A DNA stretch of 64,000 bases. It comes from a virus (Duplodnaviria; Heunggongvirae; Uroviricota; Caudoviricetes). The notes beneath the pieces were generated by a model, which was not told the origin of the DNA, searched no databases, and saw only the letters and a program-made list of their open reading frames with translations. The stretch is taken from IMG/VR virus record IMGVR_UViG_2529292922_000010; one strand, given 5' to 3'. Positions 49,028-63,958 of this stretch are shown here, in pieces (position 1 is the first letter of the stretch; each line of letters opens with the position of its first letter). The translations under genes were made by a program, and so were the position numbers.

Positions 49028-49828
49028 TTAGCGCGTTGCCGCGACAGGTACCAGCACACCAGCATCAAGCAATCGCTTCATCAGCCACTGCTGACCTTTG
49101 CCGGTTATACGAGTCGTGAAAGAAATCCTGCTTCCATTGCTTGTATCGATCACGGTTTCTTTAAGGGTGAAATACCCACGGGATATGTATTCTTGTTTGG
49201 GGACGTTCCTGCGTTCACCGGTTGCGATCAGAATTCCGTTATCACGCAACCAGGTGAAGAGATAGTTTTGGCCCAGGCCGAGCACTTTGGCATAGTTGCC
49301 GATTAGAACCCCGCTGGCGGTAGCAACGCGTTCGGCGAATTCGACTTTAGGTGCATCCATAAGCATTTTTTGCTCCAGCCGTTGCTTTTGCTCTGCCAGG
49401 TCGGCAGCCAAACGGAGAGCTTCAGGGAGACTCTGCGGAATAGCAGGTTGTAATCTTCCGGCTCGATAGTCGATAAATGTCTGGTTTACCTTCAGCCGAA
49501 ACGCGGGAGAAATCCAGCCTGCGTACTCCACAGCGAGCAATTCATGGGCAAAAGTGCCGCCGCCACGGCCTTCGAACGAAACTATGCAATTCTGCATAGT
49601 TTCTTTTTCAAGCTCTTCGATGAGCTGTTTTGCTGACAGCGTTCTTAGCCATTGAGCTGGCGCTTTATGGGCACCGAGTCCGCTCGCTCTGTGTAGAGCA
49701 TTAAGGTTGTAACGGCCAGCGCGGTCGGTCGTAATTTCAACACCACAAATAACGGGCAGAGTGGTTGAAGGATCGACATTTTGATGAAGGTTTGATATAT
49801 TCATATCCGCATTGAATGTTTGTTGCAT
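49028..49828 (-). CDS. kilA: KilA (KilA-N domain plus antirepressor-like C-terminal domain)
   Basis: 266 aa; KilA-N-type N-terminus; C-terminal domain shared with Ant. Confidence 0.75.
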   Translation of the reverse strand: MQQTFNADMNISNLHQNVDPSTTLPVICGVEITTDRAGRYNLNALHRASGLGAHKAPAQWLRTLSAKQLIEELEKETMQNCIVSFEGRGGGTFAHELLAVEYAGWISPAFRLKVNQTFIDYRAGRLQPAIPQSLPEALRLAADLAEQKQRLEQKMLMDAPKVEFAERVATASGVLIGNYAKVLGLGQNYLFTWLRDNGILIATGERRNVPKQEYISRGYFTLKETVIDTSNGSRISFTTRITGKGQQWLMKRLLDAGVLVPVAATR

Positions 49829-49897
49829 TTTTTCTCCAAATTTGCATCAACCTTCAATCACCAGCTCGAAATGGTGATTCTTTGCACTTAGAAAACG

Positions 49898-49915
49898 AAA
49901 TTTATTAGAGCAAAT
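49898..49915 (-). promoter_or_regulatory. C1 operator controlling kilA-repL
   Basis: AAATTTATTAGAGCAAAT. Confidence 0.65.
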
Positions 49916-49992
49916 TTTTCTGACTCGATCCAGATCGGGTTGGACGATCTGCTCAGAAACCTGCCAGTTTGCTGGCAGGTTTTTTTCTTTTG

Positions 49993-51030
49993 TTAACCTA
50001 TTGCTACTGGTTTTAACAAACCAGCATCAAGTAGCTTGCGAGTTAACCACTGCTGGCCTTTACCCGTTAATTGGGGCGTCAGCCGTATCTGGTAGCCATT
50101 TTCATCATCCAGCACCACTTCTTTCACCGTGAAATACCCGGCGTTGATGTACTGTTGGCGCGGTACGTTTTTGCGCGCACCAAAAGCCATGAGAATGCCG
50201 TTCTGGCGCAACCATGAGAAAAGGGCGTTTTGCTTAAGTCCAACGACCTTTGCAAAGTTCCCGATCAGGATTCCATTAGCCACTGATACCCGGTCGGCAA
50301 AATCGACTTTAGGGGCTGCGGCCACCAGCTGTTGTTCCAGCTGCATTTTCTGTTCTGCCAACTCGGCAGCCAGGCGTAGAGCTTCTGGTAATGTTTGGGG
50401 GATCGATGGGGCAGGGGAGTTTGTCTGCTGCAATTCTTCCAGTTTGTCGATCAGCGAACGGCGGACCGCTTTTGACTCGCGCGCGGCGACTCGCAGGGCT
50501 TGTTTGAAAGTCATGGTTATGACAAGCATTGATGTTTTGTTCATTTTTTCCACTACACTTTTTGTGTAGTGCTCACCATCAAGCTCATCGAGTATTTTTT
50601 CGATGAATTTGTTGTTCCGAACCTCTGGTTCCCCACATAACTTACGCGCTTCATTGACCATCTTTAACAGTGTCAGGCTGTCGATTGTGTCTCCGGTGTT
50701 GGAGATAACATTCACTGCTGGTGATGGCGTAGCTGAAGCAACAGGTGCTGGTTTTTCAACATTCAAATTATTACCGGTCATTCTGCGCGCCTCCTTTCTC
50801 ATTTCTGCTGCCACTGTTGCGTAACGTAGACGTCCTTGTTCAATCAAATAATCCCTGATCTCGGCTATCAGTAGCCTGTTGATCACAGCCTTATCTGTTC
50901 GGGTATAAAAACGTCTGGTTATCATGAAATAGTTGGCAATTGCGCCGGGGATCTCCCGTGTCGGCATACAGGTTGTATGCAAAGCGATCGCTTCGGCTAT
51001 TTCATTACGGGTGACGAGAGGTGTTTTCAT
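49993..51030 (-). CDS. ant1: antirepressor Ant (Ant1, with probable internal start for Ant2)
   Basis: 345 aa; C-terminal domain paralogous to KilA C-terminus; preceded by icd. Confidence 0.75.
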   Translation of the reverse strand: MKTPLVTRNEIAEAIALHTTCMPTREIPGAIANYFMITRRFYTRTDKAVINRLLIAEIRDYLIEQGRLRYATVAAEMRKEARRMTGNNLNVEKPAPVASATPSPAVNVISNTGDTIDSLTLLKMVNEARKLCGEPEVRNNKFIEKILDELDGEHYTKSVVEKMNKTSMLVITMTFKQALRVAARESKAVRRSLIDKLEELQQTNSPAPSIPQTLPEALRLAAELAEQKMQLEQQLVAAAPKVDFADRVSVANGILIGNFAKVVGLKQNALFSWLRQNGILMAFGARKNVPRQQYINAGYFTVKEVVLDDENGYQIRLTPQLTGKGQQWLTRKLLDAGLLKPVAIG

Positions 51031-51340: not shown

Positions 51341-51565
51341 ACCAGCAGGCCGAAGCCTCCCCATCACGCCCCACCATAATTTGGGCGTAACGCGGTTTTA
51401 CGGACACAAAAATACCGCAATATCGGATATCTGCGGCTGTCCGCACAATCATTCAGGCTGCTAAACCCGGTCGCAGAATTTGCTACGACGGCGGAACTAT
51501 AAGCCTGAACGATTAAAAGGTCAATATGATGCGAAAAGATAGCATTCGCGACTTAAAAATACAAA

Positions 51566-51579
51566 TCTATTAGAGCATT
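51566..51579 (-). promoter_or_regulatory. C1 operator upstream of immI operon
   Basis: ATCTATTAGAGCAT variant. Confidence 0.5.
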
Positions 51580-51648
51580 ATCTGATTAGTAAATACACAA
51601 CTGGATCTAATAACCTCTTTTTTTTAAAGGCGAAAATATGTACCCTAA

Positions 51649-52323
51649 ATGAGTTATAAGGCAGGTGAGGTTATAATGAGAAAACTATTACTACCGTTAT
51701 TATTTATGGCTGGGACTGTTAATGCAGCATCAAGCGTAAAGGAGATTTGTACCGATTATACGAAATACCTTGGGCACGTTTACGGCTTTGCTGTCAGTCA
51801 AGACGAATCCATGCGCAAGAAGTTACTGTCAGATATGAAACGCCTTAAACTTTCTGAAGCGATGGTGCAGCAAGAACTGTATAAAGTCGCAACCAACGAA
51901 AATGCTAAATATCAATATTCTCGCCTGTTAAATCCCGACGCAAACGAGATCAATCGAAGCTCTTTCGATTATATGGTAAAGGCATGCGAAACCGCTCCTG
52001 ATTTTGCTATTCCTAGCTGGGGTGTGCTGGTGGCGAGCAATGCCGTTAATAAAGAAGACGTTGGAAGAAATGGCATTGATTCAATCAGAAACTCACCGGG
52101 AATGCGCCATCAAAACGTTCAGGGTACGCTTGAAGAACGGGCCAGGGGGCCGGGTACAAACTCCCCAATGGGAAACCTCTCCCCGGAGGAATTGCAAGAG
52201 TATAACCAACGGATGGAGCAGTATGAGAAAGCTGCACGCGAAAAAATGGAACAACAAAAAAACGGATCTCTTAATACTTTCCAGCAAGGTTTAAAAGCGC
52301 TTAATTTACCCTATGAATGGTGA
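51649..52323 (+). CDS. secreted protein (signal peptide) sharing a motif with Sit; possible superinfection-exclusion protein
   Basis: N-terminal signal peptide LLLPLLFMAGTVNAAS; internal RNSPGMR...VQGTLEERARG segment also found in Sit. Confidence 0.5.
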   Translation: MSYKAGEVIMRKLLLPLLFMAGTVNAASSVKEICTDYTKYLGHVYGFAVSQDESMRKKLLSDMKRLKLSEAMVQQELYKVATNENAKYQYSRLLNPDANEINRSSFDYMVKACETAPDFAIPSWGVLVASNAVNKEDVGRNGIDSIRNSPGMRHQNVQGTLEERARGPGTNSPMGNLSPEELQEYNQRMEQYEKAAREKMEQQKNGSLNTFQQGLKALNLPYEW

Positions 52324-52374
52324 ATATATGGTGGTTAACTAATTAAAATATTAATATCCAAAGGAGATAAATTA

Positions 52375-52851
52375 ATGCGCATCAAACGATTTTTACTAGT
52401 TATTGCTTTGCTTACTCCGTTTTCATCAATGGCAAATGTAAGCAAATGGTCAACCGGCGAGACTCATGGTGTTCGTTCTTATGCTGTTTCCAGCAAAGAT
52501 AATTATACGCTTACATTTGAGTGCGATGTTGGATTTAATAATACGGATCCCAATCAAGTAGGAACACGACTACTCACTCTCATGAAAACAGAACCTGGCG
52601 GTGAGTCATTTGATGCTAAAAAAGAACAAATAACGCTGAAAGTTGGTGATGATGAATATCCTATCAGTTCTATCGGTTCCTCTGTGGGTGATAGTTACTG
52701 GTATGGTTTTTGGTCAGATACCCCTGATATGGAAGTTAAAACATTCGATGCATACGTAGACGGAAAAAAAATCGCAACATTTACGCTACGTAAGGCCGCA
52801 GAGCTTTTCAACGCGGCACCTGAAGATGGCTGCCTGAAGCGCGCAAAATGA
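52375..52851 (+). CDS. secreted protein (signal peptide)
   Basis: MRIKRFLLVIALLTPFSSMA signal peptide. Confidence 0.5.
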   Translation: MRIKRFLLVIALLTPFSSMANVSKWSTGETHGVRSYAVSSKDNYTLTFECDVGFNNTDPNQVGTRLLTLMKTEPGGESFDAKKEQITLKVGDDEYPISSIGSSVGDSYWYGFWSDTPDMEVKTFDAYVDGKKIATFTLRKAAELFNAAPEDGCLKRAK

Positions 52852-52885
52852 CCTGTCACAAATGACTACTCGTAGAATCGGTTAA

Positions 52886-53476
<591 letters not shown>

Positions 53477-55075: not shown

Positions 55076-58000
55076 ATGGAAAGAAAAAACGCCAACATTG
55101 ACGATGTGATAAGGACGGTTGAAACCGCCAGCGCAAAAGAGCTGGAAGAGCTTGCAGGTATTCGGGAAGCCGTTGAAGATTTGAAAGGTGGGCGAGTTGC
55201 TACAGTTGATCCTGTCTCTCGCAGTGTGTCGGCATTAAATCGCACAATCGAAAATTCCCGGCCAGACTTTGTGGCCAATGCGCCATCAGTGGACCCTATT
55301 GTTGAGGCAATGAAACGGCTTAATTTAGGGGACGTTTCTCGTGTAGTTCAGGAGGATGTTGCTCTACAGGAACCGCAGGCCAAATCAACTACGCGAAAGG
55401 GTAAAAAACGACGCAAGAAGGCTATAACAGAAGATGTAAAGGCGCAACGGACCGAAGCAGCCGAACACGCTCGCGAAATGTTCGGTCAAAAAGGCGGTGC
55501 GCAAAAAAGCCAAAACCAACGCGATGCGCGTGGTCGTTTTATTGGAAAGTCAGGGAGTAAGGCCGCAGCGGAAGATGCCCGTGCTGAACGTGCTGAAAAG
55601 GCCAGGCGCAAAGAGGATGATGAGCGTCTAAATGCTGAATCAGGTTTATTAAAAAAACTGTCAAAAGTAGCTGAAGGCATAGGTAACCCTTCAGAGACTC
55701 GTGCCGTCGATGCGTTAGGTTATGCCGTTGCTGGTCCATTGTGGGCAGCAGGGAAGGAGCTTGGCGGGATATCAAAAGAAGTTGGTGGATCGCTTAATGG
55801 TGCCAGAAAGTCTATTGCCGATGTGATTCGTGGCAATGACGATAACAGCCGTAGAAAAGGTTTTTTTAGGCGTAAATCGCAAAATAGTGCCGATGTCGTT
55901 CAGGTTAACACCCAAAAACGGACGGTTCAGGAACTTCAGGAGCAGACCAGCGAAATTAAAGAGGGCAATGACAAGATTCTCCGCGCCCTTGATCAGATAG
56001 CCAAAAACACCGGGAAAAAGAAGGGCGGCTTGCTGTCCAAACTATTTAGCCTGTTAGGGAAGGGGGCCGGTGGCGTCGCGTCGTTGTTAATGGGGCGTGG
56101 CATGCTGAAAAAAGCTGGAGCACTCGCTTTTGGCGCTCTGGGGGCAAAGAAACTTGTAGGAATGCTACGCGGTGGTGGCAAGAAGACTCTCGCCCATGAA
56201 GGCGGAGATTTGGCTGCCCGGGCAGCAGGTAAACTTGGATTAAAGGCAGTTGGTAAAGGGGCGTTACGCGCAATTCCCCTAGTCGGCACAGTGGCTGGAG
56301 GTATTTATGATGCGGTAACCGGTTGGAATGATACAGAAGCGCAACGTCGAGCGTTTGGGCTTAAATCAGGACAAGATCCATCATTCCAGCAAAAAGCCGC
56401 TTATACGTTAGCTAATGTTCTTGATATGGGGGGACTGGTATCTGGTATTAGCAGCGCCATTGGTGAGGTTCTCAAATCACTTGGATTTGAGGATATCGGC
56501 AATATGTTGCAATCATTTTCGACGGAAAGTATTGCCCAGGCCATTGATAGTGGGATTACCAACTTAGAAACATATATTTCTAACCTTGGCGACACCATTT
56601 CTACCAAGTTCGATGATTACACAGCAAAGATTGGTGATGCTGTTTCAGCATGGTTTAGCGATACATCTAATAAGCTGCTTGAAAAGCTGGATGCCATCAA
56701 AGACTTCTTTACTGTCGATAACCTGAAACAGGTTTTCAGTGATGCAATTGATAGTGCAATTGATTTCATTAAGAACCCAGGGAAACATATTAAAGAGGCG
56801 GCTGGTAATATTTGGGATGGGGTTAAAAATTTCCCCGGTAAAGCATTAGATGCAGCGGTTGATGCCGTTAAAAATACCCCTGCGGCAATGATTGTATCAA
56901 AAATACCCAATCCGATCGGCGAGGCTAATGCGAAAGAAATCACTCCAGAGTTAAAAGCTCCGGTTAATAGCCACCAGGAGACATCTGATTCTAAAACTGA
57001 ATCCGATGCCAAACAGACTAATATTGTTACCCGCGTGATAAATGCGGCACTGGACACGGCGAAAGATAGCAATAAAACAGTTAAAGAAACTGCTAATCAG
57101 ATTATCAATGCAAATGCCGTAGAAACGGGCAATAGCGCGTTGCAGAAAATTGATAAAGCTATTGGTCAAAATAGCTCGTCATCATCGTCGCTTAATACCA
57201 CTGGCACCAGGAATGACATTCAGAAAGCTGCGGATACCTACAACAATGGCAACTTGGATGTAAAAGTCGGAAGTCTTGGCGCTGAAGGTAAGGCAAATCT
57301 CGATAAGTTGGCTCCGTATTTTGCCGAACTAGAGAATAAATACGGTCTTCCAGAAGGCACTCTTTACGCGATTGCTGCAACTGAATCTGGTGGTAATCCG
57401 TATGCAAAATCCCAAACCGGTGCTCTGGGGATGTTTCAGTTCACGGGGATTGCTCGTGAAGAGACTGGCTTAGCTGAAGGTGAATCGTTTGATCCTGTGA
57501 AATCGGCAGAAGCTGCGGCTCTTCTCATGAGCAAATATCTGAAGCAAGCCAATGGAGACTTAAACGAGGCCATCACTGCATATAATGCTGGGTTTGGCAC
57601 TATCAATAAGTGGAAAAAAGGCACAGGTGACTTATCGAAAGAAAACCGTGAGTACGCGATCAAGGTCAATACTCATCGTGCTCGCTATTTAGGTGGTGAA
57701 ATCTATACACCTGGAGCAGGAGCACAGGGTGGGGCGCAATATGGAGTGAGGGGACCACTGCCTGATAACGCTGTTATCGATCAGTCTACTGGCCTGGCGT
57801 TTACCCCTGGTGATAGCCCGTTTGAGAAAGGCGGTCTGGTAGACAAAATTGGCAATGCTGTTGGCGTTAACGATCTGGTCAACAAATTCATGAATGGCCG
57901 GGGTATGCGTCGGGAAGTCGTTCAGGGAACGCTCGAAGAACGTGCACGAGGGAAGGGGACCGCAACAGCAGCTGGCAATGTGTATGTTGATACTCCGATG

Positions 58001-58468
58001 CCAGTTGAAGAGGCGCGTCCGGTGGCCAGCAACTCAAGTTACTTTGACCAACTCGGCGCACAAATGGGGATTGATGGACTATTTGATAAACTCCGCAACT
58101 CGCCGGGGATGCGGAAAAATAATGCGCCTGAACCAGCCTCCACGTCCCAGGTGACGACTGCCGCCAACGATTTGCAGCAACCAACCGGTCGTATGCAGAT
58201 AGACGGACAGGTTATTAGTGACCTTGGCGGCTCCGGTGCCAAGCCGACAATGCAGTTGGCTGATAATACCGTTTCACTTGATGGTGAAACGAAGCGGCTG
58301 TTTGCGCAGATGACCTCATTGCTTGCCAGGATTGAAGAGCACACTAAAGACTCGGCGAAAGGCCAGGGAACTGTCGTAAAGGTCAGCACGCCTCAACCGG
58401 GCGTTATGCGCACGGTGCCACTGTCAATTGATGATCCGTTGATGAATGACTACGCGAGAGTTGATTGA
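55076..58468 (+). CDS. sit: tape-measure-like injection protein with lytic transglycosylase domain (Sit)
   Basis: 1130 aa; Gly/Ala/Lys-rich repeats; SLT motif LPEGTLYAIAATESGGNPYAKSQTGALGMFQF. Confidence 0.85.
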   Translation: MERKNANIDDVIRTVETASAKELEELAGIREAVEDLKGGRVATVDPVSRSVSALNRTIENSRPDFVANAPSVDPIVEAMKRLNLGDVSRVVQEDVALQEPQAKSTTRKGKKRRKKAITEDVKAQRTEAAEHAREMFGQKGGAQKSQNQRDARGRFIGKSGSKAAAEDARAERAEKARRKEDDERLNAESGLLKKLSKVAEGIGNPSETRAVDALGYAVAGPLWAAGKELGGISKEVGGSLNGARKSIADVIRGNDDNSRRKGFFRRKSQNSADVVQVNTQKRTVQELQEQTSEIKEGNDKILRALDQIAKNTGKKKGGLLSKLFSLLGKGAGGVASLLMGRGMLKKAGALAFGALGAKKLVGMLRGGGKKTLAHEGGDLAARAAGKLGLKAVGKGALRAIPLVGTVAGGIYDAVTGWNDTEAQRRAFGLKSGQDPSFQQKAAYTLANVLDMGGLVSGISSAIGEVLKSLGFEDIGNMLQSFSTESIAQAIDSGITNLETYISNLGDTISTKFDDYTAKIGDAVSAWFSDTSNKLLEKLDAIKDFFTVDNLKQVFSDAIDSAIDFIKNPGKHIKEAAGNIWDGVKNFPGKALDAAVDAVKNTPAAMIVSKIPNPIGEANAKEITPELKAPVNSHQETSDSKTESDAKQTNIVTRVINAALDTAKDSNKTVKETANQIINANAVETGNSALQKIDKAIGQNSSSSSSLNTTGTRNDIQKAADTYNNGNLDVKVGSLGAEGKANLDKLAPYFAELENKYGLPEGTLYAIAATESGGNPYAKSQTGALGMFQFTGIAREETGLAEGESFDPVKSAEAAALLMSKYLKQANGDLNEAITAYNAGFGTINKWKKGTGDLSKENREYAIKVNTHRARYLGGEIYTPGAGAQGGAQYGVRGPLPDNAVIDQSTGLAFTPGDSPFEKGGLVDKIGNAVGVNDLVNKFMNGRGMRREVVQGTLEERARGKGTATAAGNVYVDTPMPVEEARPVASNSSYFDQLGAQMGIDGLFDKLRNSPGMRKNNAPEPASTSQVTTAANDLQQPTGRMQIDGQVISDLGGSGAKPTMQLADNTVSLDGETKRLFAQMTSLLARIEEHTKDSAKGQGTVVKVSTPQPGVMRTVPLSIDDPLMNDYARVD

Positions 58469-61168: not shown

Positions 61169-61603
61169 ATGTCTGACGTCTCAACAAACCTCTATAAGAG
61201 TCAGTTGTTGGACTATTACTATCAGCGGCGCGCTGAATCGTCCATTAACAAAGGCTCTCGATTTTTAATCAGCAAGGCCGTTTTCGGTACCAGTTCACTG
61301 GTTACTAAGAAAGGAGATGGCACTTATGAGATTGGAGAACTGCCAAAGGCTTTCGATCTGGCAGAACTGACCAGTCAATTTTGCACCATCAACCTCGTCC
61401 CAACCTACTCAGGCGGGATAATTACTGTCCGAATGGACCTTGATCAAAGTCAGTTGCAGGAAGGGAAAAACTACCCATTCAACACTCTGGTTGTTCTGGA
61501 TAACGAGAATAAGCCAATCGCCATTATTTGTGTCCAGGAAGACTCGCTGTATGTGGGCAAAACATATACCGCAGTTATGGCCATAAACTCGACTACAGCA
61601 TAA
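61169..61603 (+). CDS. tail-fibre-associated protein (P1 R position)
   Basis: 144 aa immediately upstream of tail fibre gene. Confidence 0.45.
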   Translation: MSDVSTNLYKSQLLDYYYQRRAESSINKGSRFLISKAVFGTSSLVTKKGDGTYEIGELPKAFDLAELTSQFCTINLVPTYSGGIITVRMDLDQSQLQEGKNYPFNTLVVLDNENKPIAIICVQEDSLYVGKTYTAVMAINSTTA

Positions 61604-61614
61604 GGATATGCTTG

Positions 61615-63471
61615 ATGAATGACGTTACAGTTGTTACATCGGTTACTTACCCATCACCCGAGTCGTTGGCTCTGGTGGCTGATGTGCAATACCACGAACC
61701 ATATCTGTCAGCCGCTCTAAACCGAAAATTCAGGGGAATTGTTGACCCGGGATTTTATGCTGGTTTCTTGCCTAAGCCTGGCGGTGGGATGAACCTGTTA
61801 ATCACCTCAGTGGATGGAGATAAAACCGCTGGCGCGGCGTCAGTGGATATTGGTGAATTCTACCAGGTAACTATTCAGCATCGTAAGGATATCTCTCTTG
61901 CACTTAACGCAGGCAAGAAATATGCAATTGTGCTGAAGGGAAGATACCTTCTTGGAGAAGATACCTATCAGGTTAATACCGCGTCACATATTCATGCAGC
62001 TGAATTTGTTGCCAGAACCTATACCGATTCATATCAGTTAGGTGATGGGGAACTGCTGGTTTGTACGGTGAATATCCCTGCTGGCGTATCTACCATTACT
62101 CAAGAGATGATTGATACATCCGAGCGTATCAACCGCACGATCGGCATTGATATTTCAGACTCTGTAACCAGTACCAGAAGTGATGTTGCTGCGAGTTCGC
62201 TGGCAGTTAAAAAAGCCTACGATCTGGCGAAAAGCAAGTATACGGCGCAGGATGCAACCACGACACAAAAAGGGATAGTTCAGCTCAGTAGCGACACCAA
62301 CAGCACTTCTGAAACATTAGCTGCAACTCCAAAAGCGGTTAAAGCTGCATACGATCTAGCAGCCGGAAAGGCACCATCCAGTCATACACATCCCTGGAAT
62401 CAGATCACTGGTGTGCCAACAGCTTCATTGACAGCGAAAGGCATCACTCAGCTCAGTAGTGCCACTAACAGTACGTCCGAAGTGCTGGCCGCCACACCGA
62501 AAGCTGTCAAGGCTGCATATGATTTGGCTAACGGGAAGTATACAGCCCAGGATGCAACCACGACACAAAAAGGGATAGTTCAGCTCAGTAGCGACACCAA
62601 CAGCACTTCTGAAACATTAGCTGCAACTCCAAAAGCGGTTAAAGCTGCATACGATCTAGCAGCCGGAAAGGCACCATCCAGTCATACACATCCCTGGAAT
62701 CAGATCACTGGTGTGCCAACAGCTTCATTGACAGCGAAAGGCATCACTCAGCTCAGTAGTGCCACTAACAGCACGTCTGAAGTGCTGGCCGCCACACCGA
62801 AAGCTGTCAAGGCTGCATATGATTTGGCTAATGGAAAGCAAGCGGCAGACGCTACGCTCACTGCTCTAGCGGCACTAGCTACAGCAGCAGATAAACTCCC
62901 TTATTTCACAGGTGTTGATCGTGCCGCGTTAACTGCATTGACAAGTGTTGGACGCGCCATTCTTGGTAAGACCAGTATTCAGAGCGTTCTTGATTACCTT
63001 GGTTTAGGGGAAGGCTCGGCGCTGCCCGTTGGTGTACCTGTTCCATGGCCCTCAGCCACACCGCCAACGGGGTGGCTGAAATGCAATGGTGCAGCATTTT
63101 CTTCTGAAAAGTACCCAAATCTGGCAAAGGTTTACCCTACTAATAAATTGCCGGATCTACGGGGCGAATTTATTCGCGGCTGGGATGACGGGCGGGGGAT
63201 TGACTCTGGCCGTAATTTATTATCTGCACAGAATGATGCAATTCAGAATATTGTTGGTTCTTTCGGGCGTACTCAGCTTTTTAGAGATGTACTTAGTTCA
63301 GGGCCATTTAGTCAACATGGTCAAGTATTATCTACAGGCCTAAAGGAAACGGAAATTATTGAGGGTTATGGCTCTTATAACTGGACATTCGACGCCTCTC
63401 GCTCAGTTCGTACAGCATCTGAAACCCGCCCCCGTAATATTGCATTTAATTACATCGTAAGGGCGGCATAA
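61615..63471 (+). CDS. tail fibre protein (S-like) with collar-type receptor-binding C-terminus
   Basis: ATG at 61615 in frame of ORF 61528..63471; repeated T-x-x-KGIVQLSS fibre motifs; C-terminal PWP...GWLKCNGAAFS...LPDLRGEFIRGWDDGRG...NIAFNYIVRAA. Confidence 0.85.
   Translation: MNDVTVVTSVTYPSPESLALVADVQYHEPYLSAALNRKFRGIVDPGFYAGFLPKPGGGMNLLITSVDGDKTAGAASVDIGEFYQVTIQHRKDISLALNAGKKYAIVLKGRYLLGEDTYQVNTASHIHAAEFVARTYTDSYQLGDGELLVCTVNIPAGVSTITQEMIDTSERINRTIGIDISDSVTSTRSDVAASSLAVKKAYDLAKSKYTAQDATTTQKGIVQLSSDTNSTSETLAATPKAVKAAYDLAAGKAPSSHTHPWNQITGVPTASLTAKGITQLSSATNSTSEVLAATPKAVKAAYDLANGKYTAQDATTTQKGIVQLSSDTNSTSETLAATPKAVKAAYDLAAGKAPSSHTHPWNQITGVPTASLTAKGITQLSSATNSTSEVLAATPKAVKAAYDLANGKQAADATLTALAALATAADKLPYFTGVDRAALTALTSVGRAILGKTSIQSVLDYLGLGEGSALPVGVPVPWPSATPPTGWLKCNGAAFSSEKYPNLAKVYPTNKLPDLRGEFIRGWDDGRGIDSGRNLLSAQNDAIQNIVGSFGRTQLFRDVLSSGPFSQHGQVLSTGLKETEIIEGYGSYNWTFDASRSVRTASETRPRNIAFNYIVRAA
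62236..62835 (+). repeat. 2 x 300-bp near-perfect tandem duplication inside the tail fibre gene
   Basis: 62236-62535 and 62536-62835 differ at only about 5 positions. Confidence 0.9.
62987..63012 (+). other. hix/cix-like 26-bp crossover site 1 (within tail fibre gene)
   Basis: TTCTTGATTACC-TT-GGTTTAGGGGAA versus recalled hixL TTCTTGAAAACC-AA-GGTTTTTGATAA. Confidence 0.55.
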
Positions 63472-63490
63472 AAACGTTGGTTTGGGGGAA
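63465..63490 (+). other. hix/cix-like crossover site 2
   Basis: GGCATAAAAACG-TT-GGTTTGGGGGAA spanning the stop codon of the tail fibre gene. Confidence 0.5.
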
Positions 63491-63958
63491 GGCTCAGCAT
63501 TGCCCGTTGGCGTGCCCGTTCCGTGGCCCTTAGAAACACCGCCAACGGGGTGGCTGAAATGTAACGGAGCAGCATTTTCTTCTGAAATGTATCCCAAACT
63601 GGCAAAGGCCTACCCCACCAATAAATTACCGGATTTACGGGGAGAATTTATTCGCGGCTGGGATGATGGGCGCGGGGTGGATGCGGGACGTGCTTTATTG
63701 AGCATTCAGACAGGAATGCTGGAAAAGCACCGACATATTGTTGTAGCCAATGATGGTTACGACACAAAAGATGAATGGGAGCTGGCGACAATTTTCAAAA
63801 AAACATACACACAAGGACGGGGGCTTGATGCCTCAAATACAGGAGGGAATTTGATTCCATCACCGACACTTCATTCTCGAGGGAGTATTGGTAATACTGG
63901 CGGGAGTGAAACCCGTCCACGAAATATCGCATTTAATTACATCGTAAGGGCGGCATAA
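63479..63958 (+). other. silent alternative tail-fibre receptor-binding cassette 2 (promoterless, +1 frame relative to S)
   Basis: encodes GLGEGSALPVGVPVPWP...GWLKCNGAAFS...RGEFIRGWDDGRG...RPRNIAFNYIVRAA; conserved ends, divergent middle versus S C-terminus. Confidence 0.7.

Follow-up and report, generated by a model that had tools for sequence, protein, structure and literature searches.

The product of a simA-like gene located in the superimmunity (sim) locus of a P1-like phage-plasmid carries a motif of about 30 residues, N-x-x-GMR-x-x-x-VQGTLEERARG-x-GT, that is also found at residues 930-969 of the tape measure protein Sit encoded by the same element. On this basis we propose, tentatively, that the SimA-like protein may well be a periplasmic exclusion factor whose Sit-like motif would compete for a partner in Sit-dependent DNA entry. 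The passage of DNA across the periplasm and the inner membrane is poorly known for contractile-tailed phages, P1 among them, as is the role of the tape measure C-terminus, and a motif common to Sit and to a sim-locus protein predicted to be secreted gives these questions a precise point of attack, about 10-30 residues long. Our search of the full-text literature found no description of motif sharing between SimA and Sit or of a tape-measure decoy; an earlier remark in the P1 genome paper is possible.

The window, that is the whole stretch of 64,000 nucleotides that was analysed, is a P1-like phage-plasmid. Its positions 51400-52900 are 99.9% identical to Escherichia phage vB_EcoM-Ro157c2YLVW (NC_050153; Punavirus, P1-like), whereas phage P1 matches the first 416 bases only of this segment, at 94.5% identity and without gaps (51400-51815). 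The minus strand carries kilA, ant and icd in the P1 order, and the plus-strand order is likewise that of P1, with two small genes followed by pmgC, tub, pmgB, sit, pmgA, bplA and gene 16. In the P1 annotation the positions of the two small genes correspond to simA, simB and simC, which form the superimmunity locus. Synteny with P1 and NC_050153 places the simA-like gene (Table 1) between the c4/icd/ant genes of immI and pmgC-tub-pmgB-sit, in the same orientation as in P1; it lies between c4 and pmgC, as expected for the sim locus, and sit begins only about 3 kb downstream. In P1, the superimmunity phenotype is assigned to SimC and not to SimA, and BLASTP at E<0.01 returned no match to P1 SimB or SimC among the six-frame ORFs of the window. 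Earlier comparisons described the sim region as hypervariable and non-essential (PMC9603915, PMC6906374, PMC10695390), and P1 Sim reportedly keeps superinfecting DNA from the cytoplasm at a step after adsorption (Devlin 1982; Kliem and Dreiseikelmann 1989, as cited in PMC8546580). On the minus strand at 49028-51030, we observed a pair of paralogous antirepressors of the KilAC/Ant type (266 and 345 aa) that have their C-terminal halves in common, like P1 kilA and ant1/2.

Table 1. Features of the simA-like gene, its surroundings and sit, in window coordinates.
Feature	Position	Strand	Basis and remarks
c4 (immI) promoter, equivalent to P1 P1c4/P51b	51496..51524	-	Consensus scan; divergent from the simA-like gene
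C1 repressor operator (P1 Oc4/Op51 equivalent)	51563..51579		Coordinates transferred from the P1 annotation
Equivalent of the predicted P1 promoter PsimA	51585..51611	+	Homology to the P1 annotation, itself a prediction
simA-like gene, intact form	51676..52323	+	215 aa from the likely start; longest ORF, from 51649, 224 aa
Sec-type signal peptide, MRKLLLPLLFMAGTVNA	51676..51726	+	Sequence inspection; predicted cleavage before ASS
Conserved all-helical N-terminal domain, two invariant cysteines	51727..52050	+	AlphaFold2; homologue alignment
Sit-like linear motif	52072..52179	+	BLASTP, DNA-string match, motif HMM; low-confidence linker
Variable C-terminal module, here a long charged helix ending LNLPYEW	52180..52320	+	AlphaFold2 helix 170-208
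158-aa secreted protein (YfjT-like), with signal peptide	52375..52851	+	phrog_3429, E=2e-80; Pfam PF27224 in precomputed tables
sit, tail tape measure/injection transglycosylase, 1130 aa	55076..58468	+	ORF, synteny, SLT domain
SLT lytic transglycosylase domain, Sit aa 748-857	57317..57646	+	Pfam PF01464, E=9e-27
Sit motif copy 1, aa 930-969, GVNDLVNKFMNGRGMRREVVQGTLEERARGKGTATAAGNV	57863..57982	+	BLASTP, DNA-string match, motif HMM
Sit motif copy 2, aa 998-1016, GIDGLFDKLRNSPGMRKNN	58067..58123	+	BLASTP; repeats the motif core

The initial annotation had described a 224-aa signal-peptide protein encoded at 51649-52323, and a plus-strand ORF of this extent and coding capacity is indeed present. 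A GGTGAGG sequence, spaced as a Shine-Dalgarno site should be, stands before the ATG at 51676, and the annotation of NC_050153 likewise starts its simA-like gene at the equivalent ATG; the product is thus probably 215 rather than 224 aa long. The divergent c4 promoter has the sequence TTGACC-17-TATAGT, with 10/12 matches to the consensus, and its position maps to the P1 annotation via the ungapped match mentioned above. In the neighbourhood of the simA-like gene no other promoter fits the consensus strongly, and this one, running from 51524 to 51496, is directed away from the gene. Between the divergent c4 and simA-like genes lies a putative C1 operator, AAATCTATTAGAGCATT. No convincing promoter for the simA-like gene was found upstream by the consensus scan. 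Since the scan did not detect the PsimA equivalent either, and this element is known by homology to a prediction, the expression signals of the simA-like gene are uncertain.

By inspection, the N-terminus of the SimA-like protein displays the n-, h- and c-regions of a Sec signal peptide without a lipobox cysteine, in agreement with the signal peptide first attributed to the 224-aa form, and residues N16, A17 and S19 of this region are invariant in 23 homologues. The sequence and the AlphaFold2 secondary structure contain no transmembrane helix beyond the cleavable signal peptide, and the protein is predicted to be soluble and periplasmic. Residues 20-125, which form the N-domain, were modelled with a pLDDT of about 90 (AlphaFold2, 23 homologues), and we found no relatives of this domain by fold or by sequence. 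A match to the PTP-like phytase family (Pfam PF14566), also present in precomputed annotations of SimA-like homologues, covered residues 34-118 (window 51750-52000) with 26.4 bits for a cut-off of 27; given this score below the gathering threshold, the all-helical model and the lack of a CX5R loop, we consider it spurious. No homology to known defence families was detected in PADLOC, Pfam or NCBIfam.

The Sit-like motif follows the N-domain. Residues 142-177 (224-aa numbering) read GIDSIRNSPGMRHQNVQGTLEERARGPGTNSPMGNL, and the linker that carries the motif (residues 130-166) was modelled with a pLDDT of 47-51, which suggests that it is probably flexible. In other lineages of the family alignment, the C-terminal helix of the window protein is replaced by Cys-containing modules or by none, the chain then stopping right after the motif. 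The LNLPYEW ending (window 52300-52320) is kept in a Salmonella homologue (P0009) that is only 59% identical. Speculatively, this aromatic Y-x-W end resembles the C-termini of outer-membrane proteins that are recognised by periplasmic PDZ proteases.

The core of the motif can be written [FI]-x-N-x-x-G-M-R-[HQ]-Q and is extended in the window protein by V-Q-G-T-L-E-E-R-A-R-G-x-G-T. The peptide strings quoted in the initial annotation are present in both proteins (SimA-like 142-177; Sit 941-962, GRGMRREVVQGTLEERARGKGT; Sit 998-1016); only the spacing had to be corrected, the second Sit copy being located 57 residues from the first instead of 60. Pairwise alignment by BLASTP of SimA-like residues 131-177 with Sit residues 927-969 gave 23/47 identities (E=7e-9), and a second alignment matched RNSPGMR with Sit 1003-1013, within copy 2 (E=0.006). 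The similarity reported at the nucleotide level was also recovered: the quoted strings were located at 52117 and at 57920, and shuffling of the sequence gave an expectation of 0 matches.

We then considered the specificity of this similarity. The PHROG profiles of the SimA-like and Sit families match each other both ways (E values of 1e-7 and 7e-6). Of 749 six-frame ORFs in the window, Sit was the only one hit (E=4.5e-15) by an HMM built from the motifs of six divergent SimA-like homologues alone, with no Sit sequence included. When a profile made from nine SimA-like family members was run with HMMER against 1.84 billion representative proteins, 14 hits were obtained; 13 were members or fragments of the SimA-like family, and the remaining one was a 1081-aa Sit homologue matched at 936-979. 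The shared segment therefore did not prove, in this search, to be a low-complexity motif common in unrelated proteins, the outcome that the initial annotation had named as speaking against its claim, and this exhaustive HMMER search revealed no remote relatives outside P1-like elements. BLASTP of the SimA-like protein within its own genome matched the cognate Sit, at about 927-979, and nothing else in 8/9 representatives of lineages. Beyond the motif, BLASTP found no similarity to Sit in the SimA-like protein. Its membership in the Sit/tape measure family (phrog_2533) was rejected, the profile match being confined to residues 138-180 against Sit 929-972. P1 SimB and SimC have no similarity to Sit, nor has the 158-aa protein of the window, and no segments mimicking virion proteins were found in SimB, SimC or the YfjT-like, SH3-domain and small hydrophobic cassette proteins. 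The earlier interpretation is thus upheld as regards the similarity, which is real, specific and under selection (see below), the signal peptide, as judged by inspection, and the sim locus, and its exclusion role is retained here as a tentative proposal.

Sit is the tape measure protein of P1 (PMC12810830, PMC10695390); it is unresolved in the P1 cryo-EM structure, where it was placed in the centre of the baseplate (PMC12810830). The SLT domain is followed, after about 75 residues, by motif copy 1. The GMR, G, RA, G and G residues of this copy are invariant in ten Sit C-termini, one of which (P0040) is only 41% identical. Copy 2 lies within an insert of about 60 aa that characterises the E. 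coli-type Sit and that the Salmonella, Cronobacter and Klebsiella types lack. When 47 distinct Sit proteins with both copies were compared, hardly any variation was seen over the C-terminal 230 residues, with a single entropy peak at 1001-1020 that corresponds to copy 2, for which the alleles are RNSPGMRKNN, RNAPGMRKSN and INARGMRSNN; P1vir has the AR form of copy 2 and the Ro157c2YLVW-type Sit the SP form. In the middle of Sit (aa ~580-900, window 56800-57780, SLT domain included), by contrast, E. coli P1-like elements form a mosaic of two allelic forms that differ clearly, while the N-terminal flank and the last 230 aa hardly vary. In an AlphaFold2 model of Sit 711-1130, the SLT domain alone was modelled confidently and residues 875-1130 remained below a pLDDT of 50. 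The motif was not docked on any folded domain in this model, a weak negative since the alignment held 10 sequences, and it made no confident contacts in the model of the SimA-like protein; the two models thus favoured neither a Spackle-like action nor an intramolecular binding of the motif.

We next looked at how the motif is conserved. Nine divergent SimA-like members, 46-63% identical overall, share nine invariant positions in this low-confidence region (N139, M143, R144, Q146, G150, L152, R155, A156 and G158). In the family alignment, nearly all intact members have N-[AS]-[PR]-G-M-R-[HQ]-Q, a few having S-M-R or G-V-R, and the most divergent one (P0045) retains ENAPGMRHQAVKGSMAERARGDGT; the contigs of P0045 and of the likewise divergent P0028 do not extend far enough to include their Sit. 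The core is followed by V-x-G-[TS]-L-x-x-R-A-x-G-x-G in about half of the family; as the VQGTLEERARG half is missing from the other half, only the core of about 10 residues is universal. In the window pair, 19/35 aligned motif residues are identical, and the same codon is used in only 7 of these 19. Extending the comparison to six cognate SimA-like/Sit motif pairs from six lineages, we found the same codon at 25/76 identical residues with degenerate codons, which is about what saturated synonymous sites give. So few shared codons despite identical residues indicate that the similarity is old and has been maintained at the protein level, and this codon evidence rules out recent gene conversion or DNA copying as its source. 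In both proteins, the shared segment has the behaviour expected of a short linear motif on which purifying selection acts.

The variable residues of the motif were also compared with those of the cognate Sit. In 5/7 lineages the dipeptide before GMR is the same in both proteins (SP/SP, AR/AR, AP/AP twice and SR/SR), for which exact permutation at the lineage level gave p=0.012; for the BLOSUM score of the 14-residue core, p was 0.005. This test is weak with n=7, with lineages that are partly related and with the simA-like gene linked to sit on the same element. There are exceptions to this co-variation: in L019, L028 and L033 the motif is of the AP form and Sit copy 2 of the AR form, and JK004 is mismatched. 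A permutation over 23 pairs (p<5e-5 for the N-part) was discounted, being inflated by near-identical E. coli elements. The co-variation of the motif with the cognate Sit is thus suggestive.

A motif selected in two proteins that are able to meet, or to meet a common partner, only in the periplasm of the infected cell leads to the reading of the SimA-like protein as an exclusion factor. The SimA-like protein would be exported by Sec to the periplasm of the resident host. By analogy with other tailed phages, and by inference from T4 (bioRxiv 10.64898/2026.03.06.709160), the C-terminal part of the tape measure would be released into the envelope on contraction, and when a related phage contracts its tail the C-terminal region of Sit would enter the periplasm. 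There, the resident SimA-like protein would display the same motif and occupy what the Sit motif must engage, most likely a putative host periplasmic or inner-membrane factor, and the DNA entry of the related phage would be aborted after adsorption. Competition for a host partner is a plausible first choice, with direct binding to Sit as the main rival; in the more precise form in which the decoy motif titrates a host factor needed by the tape measure C-terminus to open the DNA conduit, it is possible and yet doubtful. If the decoy reading were true, it would amount to superinfection exclusion by molecular mimicry, a mode absent from the literature searched, and the motif would reveal where the P1 tape measure protein docks on the host; copy 2 of the E. 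coli-type Sit, being variable, would then bear the mark of an arms race in which decoy and target are opposed. Several points count against this reading. SimC, to which the phenotype is credited in P1, is absent from the window and unrelated in sequence; the co-variation has exceptions, the consensus scan gave no convincing promoter, and half of the family has the core of the motif only; nor does the decoy model account for the conserved N-domain and the ever-present 158-aa partner.

The main rival holds that the secreted copy would bind the incoming Sit itself and block its refolding or the formation of a channel, the motif being a Sit-Sit or Sit-baseplate contact. The two core copies of the E. 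coli P1-like Sit could pair mutually or with a common site, T4 Imm is a precedent for direct binding to a tape measure protein (bioRxiv 10.64898/2026.03.06.709160), and the co-variation with the cognate Sit fits this explanation as well as it fits the decoy. However, Sit types with a single motif copy exist, and we saw no sign of self-association of the motif, for which AlphaFold2 gave no confident contacts in either protein; we regard direct poisoning of Sit as rather unlikely. Somewhat less probable still is a handling signal without any exclusion role, in which the motif would be a site for a periplasmic chaperone or protease on both proteins, and the SimA-like protein would have a job of its own, for example envelope modification or the sensing of superinfection in the manner of T4 RI. 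The position of the motif at the junction of a conserved domain and interchangeable C-terminal modules, where a processing site might be expected, and the assignment of the P1 Sim phenotype to SimC are in its favour, but it leaves unexplained why the variable residues track the cognate Sit, and a host site would be expected in host substrates too, whereas, of 1.84e9 proteins, only the members of these two families have the motif.

The closeness of motif copy 1 to the SLT domain, about 75 residues, raised a further explanation, in which the motif would be an autoinhibitory or docking segment whose periplasmic copy blocks the digestion of peptidoglycan by the incoming tail. T4 Sp, a periplasmic inhibitor of the tail lysozyme, would be the model for such an activity. 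This explanation seems improbable, because AlphaFold2 left the motif undocked on the SLT domain in Sit 711-1130 (alignment of 10 sequences), and the mosaic SLT region, with its two allelic forms, next to an invariant copy 1 argues against tight co-adaptation. Finally, a sit fragment captured into the sim locus by illegitimate recombination and merely persisting as a functionless relic would suit a recombination hot spot with many cassette types (PMC9603915, PMC6906374) that has sit only about 3 kb downstream, but is very hard to reconcile with a peptide conserved while its synonymous sites are saturated, with nine invariant positions in a low-confidence linker of members that are 46-63% identical, and with a motif kept where the downstream modules were all replaced.

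Returning to the proposed exclusion factor, we compared it with known systems. It shares with simABC of P1 its genomic position and orientation, its first 45 residues, which are those of P1 SimA, and a predicted signal peptide, like those of all the P1 products. It differs in that P1 SimA is a 52-aa remnant devoid of the motif, whereas the window has an intact SimA-like protein and a YfjT-like partner and no homologue of SimB or SimC. T4 Spackle (Sp) is a small secreted periplasmic protein, as the SimA-like protein is predicted to be, and interferes with the cell-wall-degrading enzyme of the tail; the SimA-like protein has no sequence or fold relationship with it and no predicted docking of its motif on the SLT domain of Sit. 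There are precedents for exclusion proteins directed at tape measure or ejection proteins: T4 Imm binds gp29, the T4 tape measure protein (bioRxiv 10.64898/2026.03.06.709160), TP-J34 Ltp targets the tape measure protein according to Bebeacua 2013 as cited in PMC3952083, and P22 SieA targets the C-terminal regions of ejection proteins (PMC10883804). By analogy, the SimA-like protein may work like these three. Nevertheless, Imm is integral to the inner membrane and is not reported to copy any sequence of its target, and Ltp, a lipoprotein, and SieA, an inner-membrane protein, are membrane-anchored and not described as target mimics, whereas the SimA-like protein is predicted to be soluble and periplasmic, has no anchor and is alone in carrying a copy of the sequence of its presumed target, a tape measure peptide. 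Membership in the tape-measure-targeting exclusion proteins of the T4 Imm, Ltp or HK97 gp15 type was rejected, the protein having no transmembrane helix, no lipobox and no family match.

The SimA-like protein belongs to the SimA family, since it matches phrog_3933 ('simA domain protein') over its full length with E=1.1e-136. The first 45 aa of the 224-aa form are identical to those of P1 SimA (52 aa), which then diverges and stops, and the DNA homology to P1 ends at window position 51815. The simA of the P1 reference (P1 9250-9408) thus appears, from this comparison, to be a 5' remnant of the 215/224-aa gene, with simB and simC replacing the rest in P1; the initial annotation had not recognised the window gene as the full-length form of P1 simA. 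The P1 reference is then to be read differently, its simA being apparently what is left of a larger gene common in P1-like phage-plasmids. By tblastn, we found the simA-like gene in 267 PLSDB plasmids, 84 of them with copies covering at least 80% of the query; with few exceptions, the 267 plasmids are P1-like phage-plasmids, non-mobilizable, from Escherichia, Salmonella and Klebsiella, and the remaining matches are variant forms or the P1-type remnant only. Cronobacter phage JK004 also has a simA-like gene. P1-like phage-plasmids spread antibiotic-resistance genes, and the rules of their mutual exclusion therefore matter for epidemiology.

The content of the sim locus varies from one element to another. 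The cassette consists of the SimA-like protein and the 158-aa protein in the window, of the remnant, SimB and SimC in P1, and elsewhere of the SimA-like protein with a 168-aa protein and an SH3-domain protein; other combinations also occur, and sim gives the impression of a site where envelope-directed proteins are exchanged. The cassettes at L003 9204-11162, L006 9081-10758 and L080 10768-11650 add a very hydrophobic protein of 116-117 aa and a 344-394-aa protein annotated as SH3-domain-containing. In every lineage examined (L003, L005, L006, L080 and L082), a secreted protein of 158 to 168 aa is encoded directly downstream of the SimA-like gene, the homologues of the 158-aa protein being 29-57% identical across these lineages, which suggests that the two genes form a module. 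Further along the window, a unit of about 95 aa (TTQKGIVQLSSDTNSTSETLAATPKAVKAAYDLA...) is repeated in tandem within the tail-fibre ORF at 61528-63471, and the ORF at 63482-63958 repeats the C-terminal receptor-binding end of this fibre ORF; the arrangement at 61528-63958 fits the alternative fibre ends of the invertible C-segment of P1.
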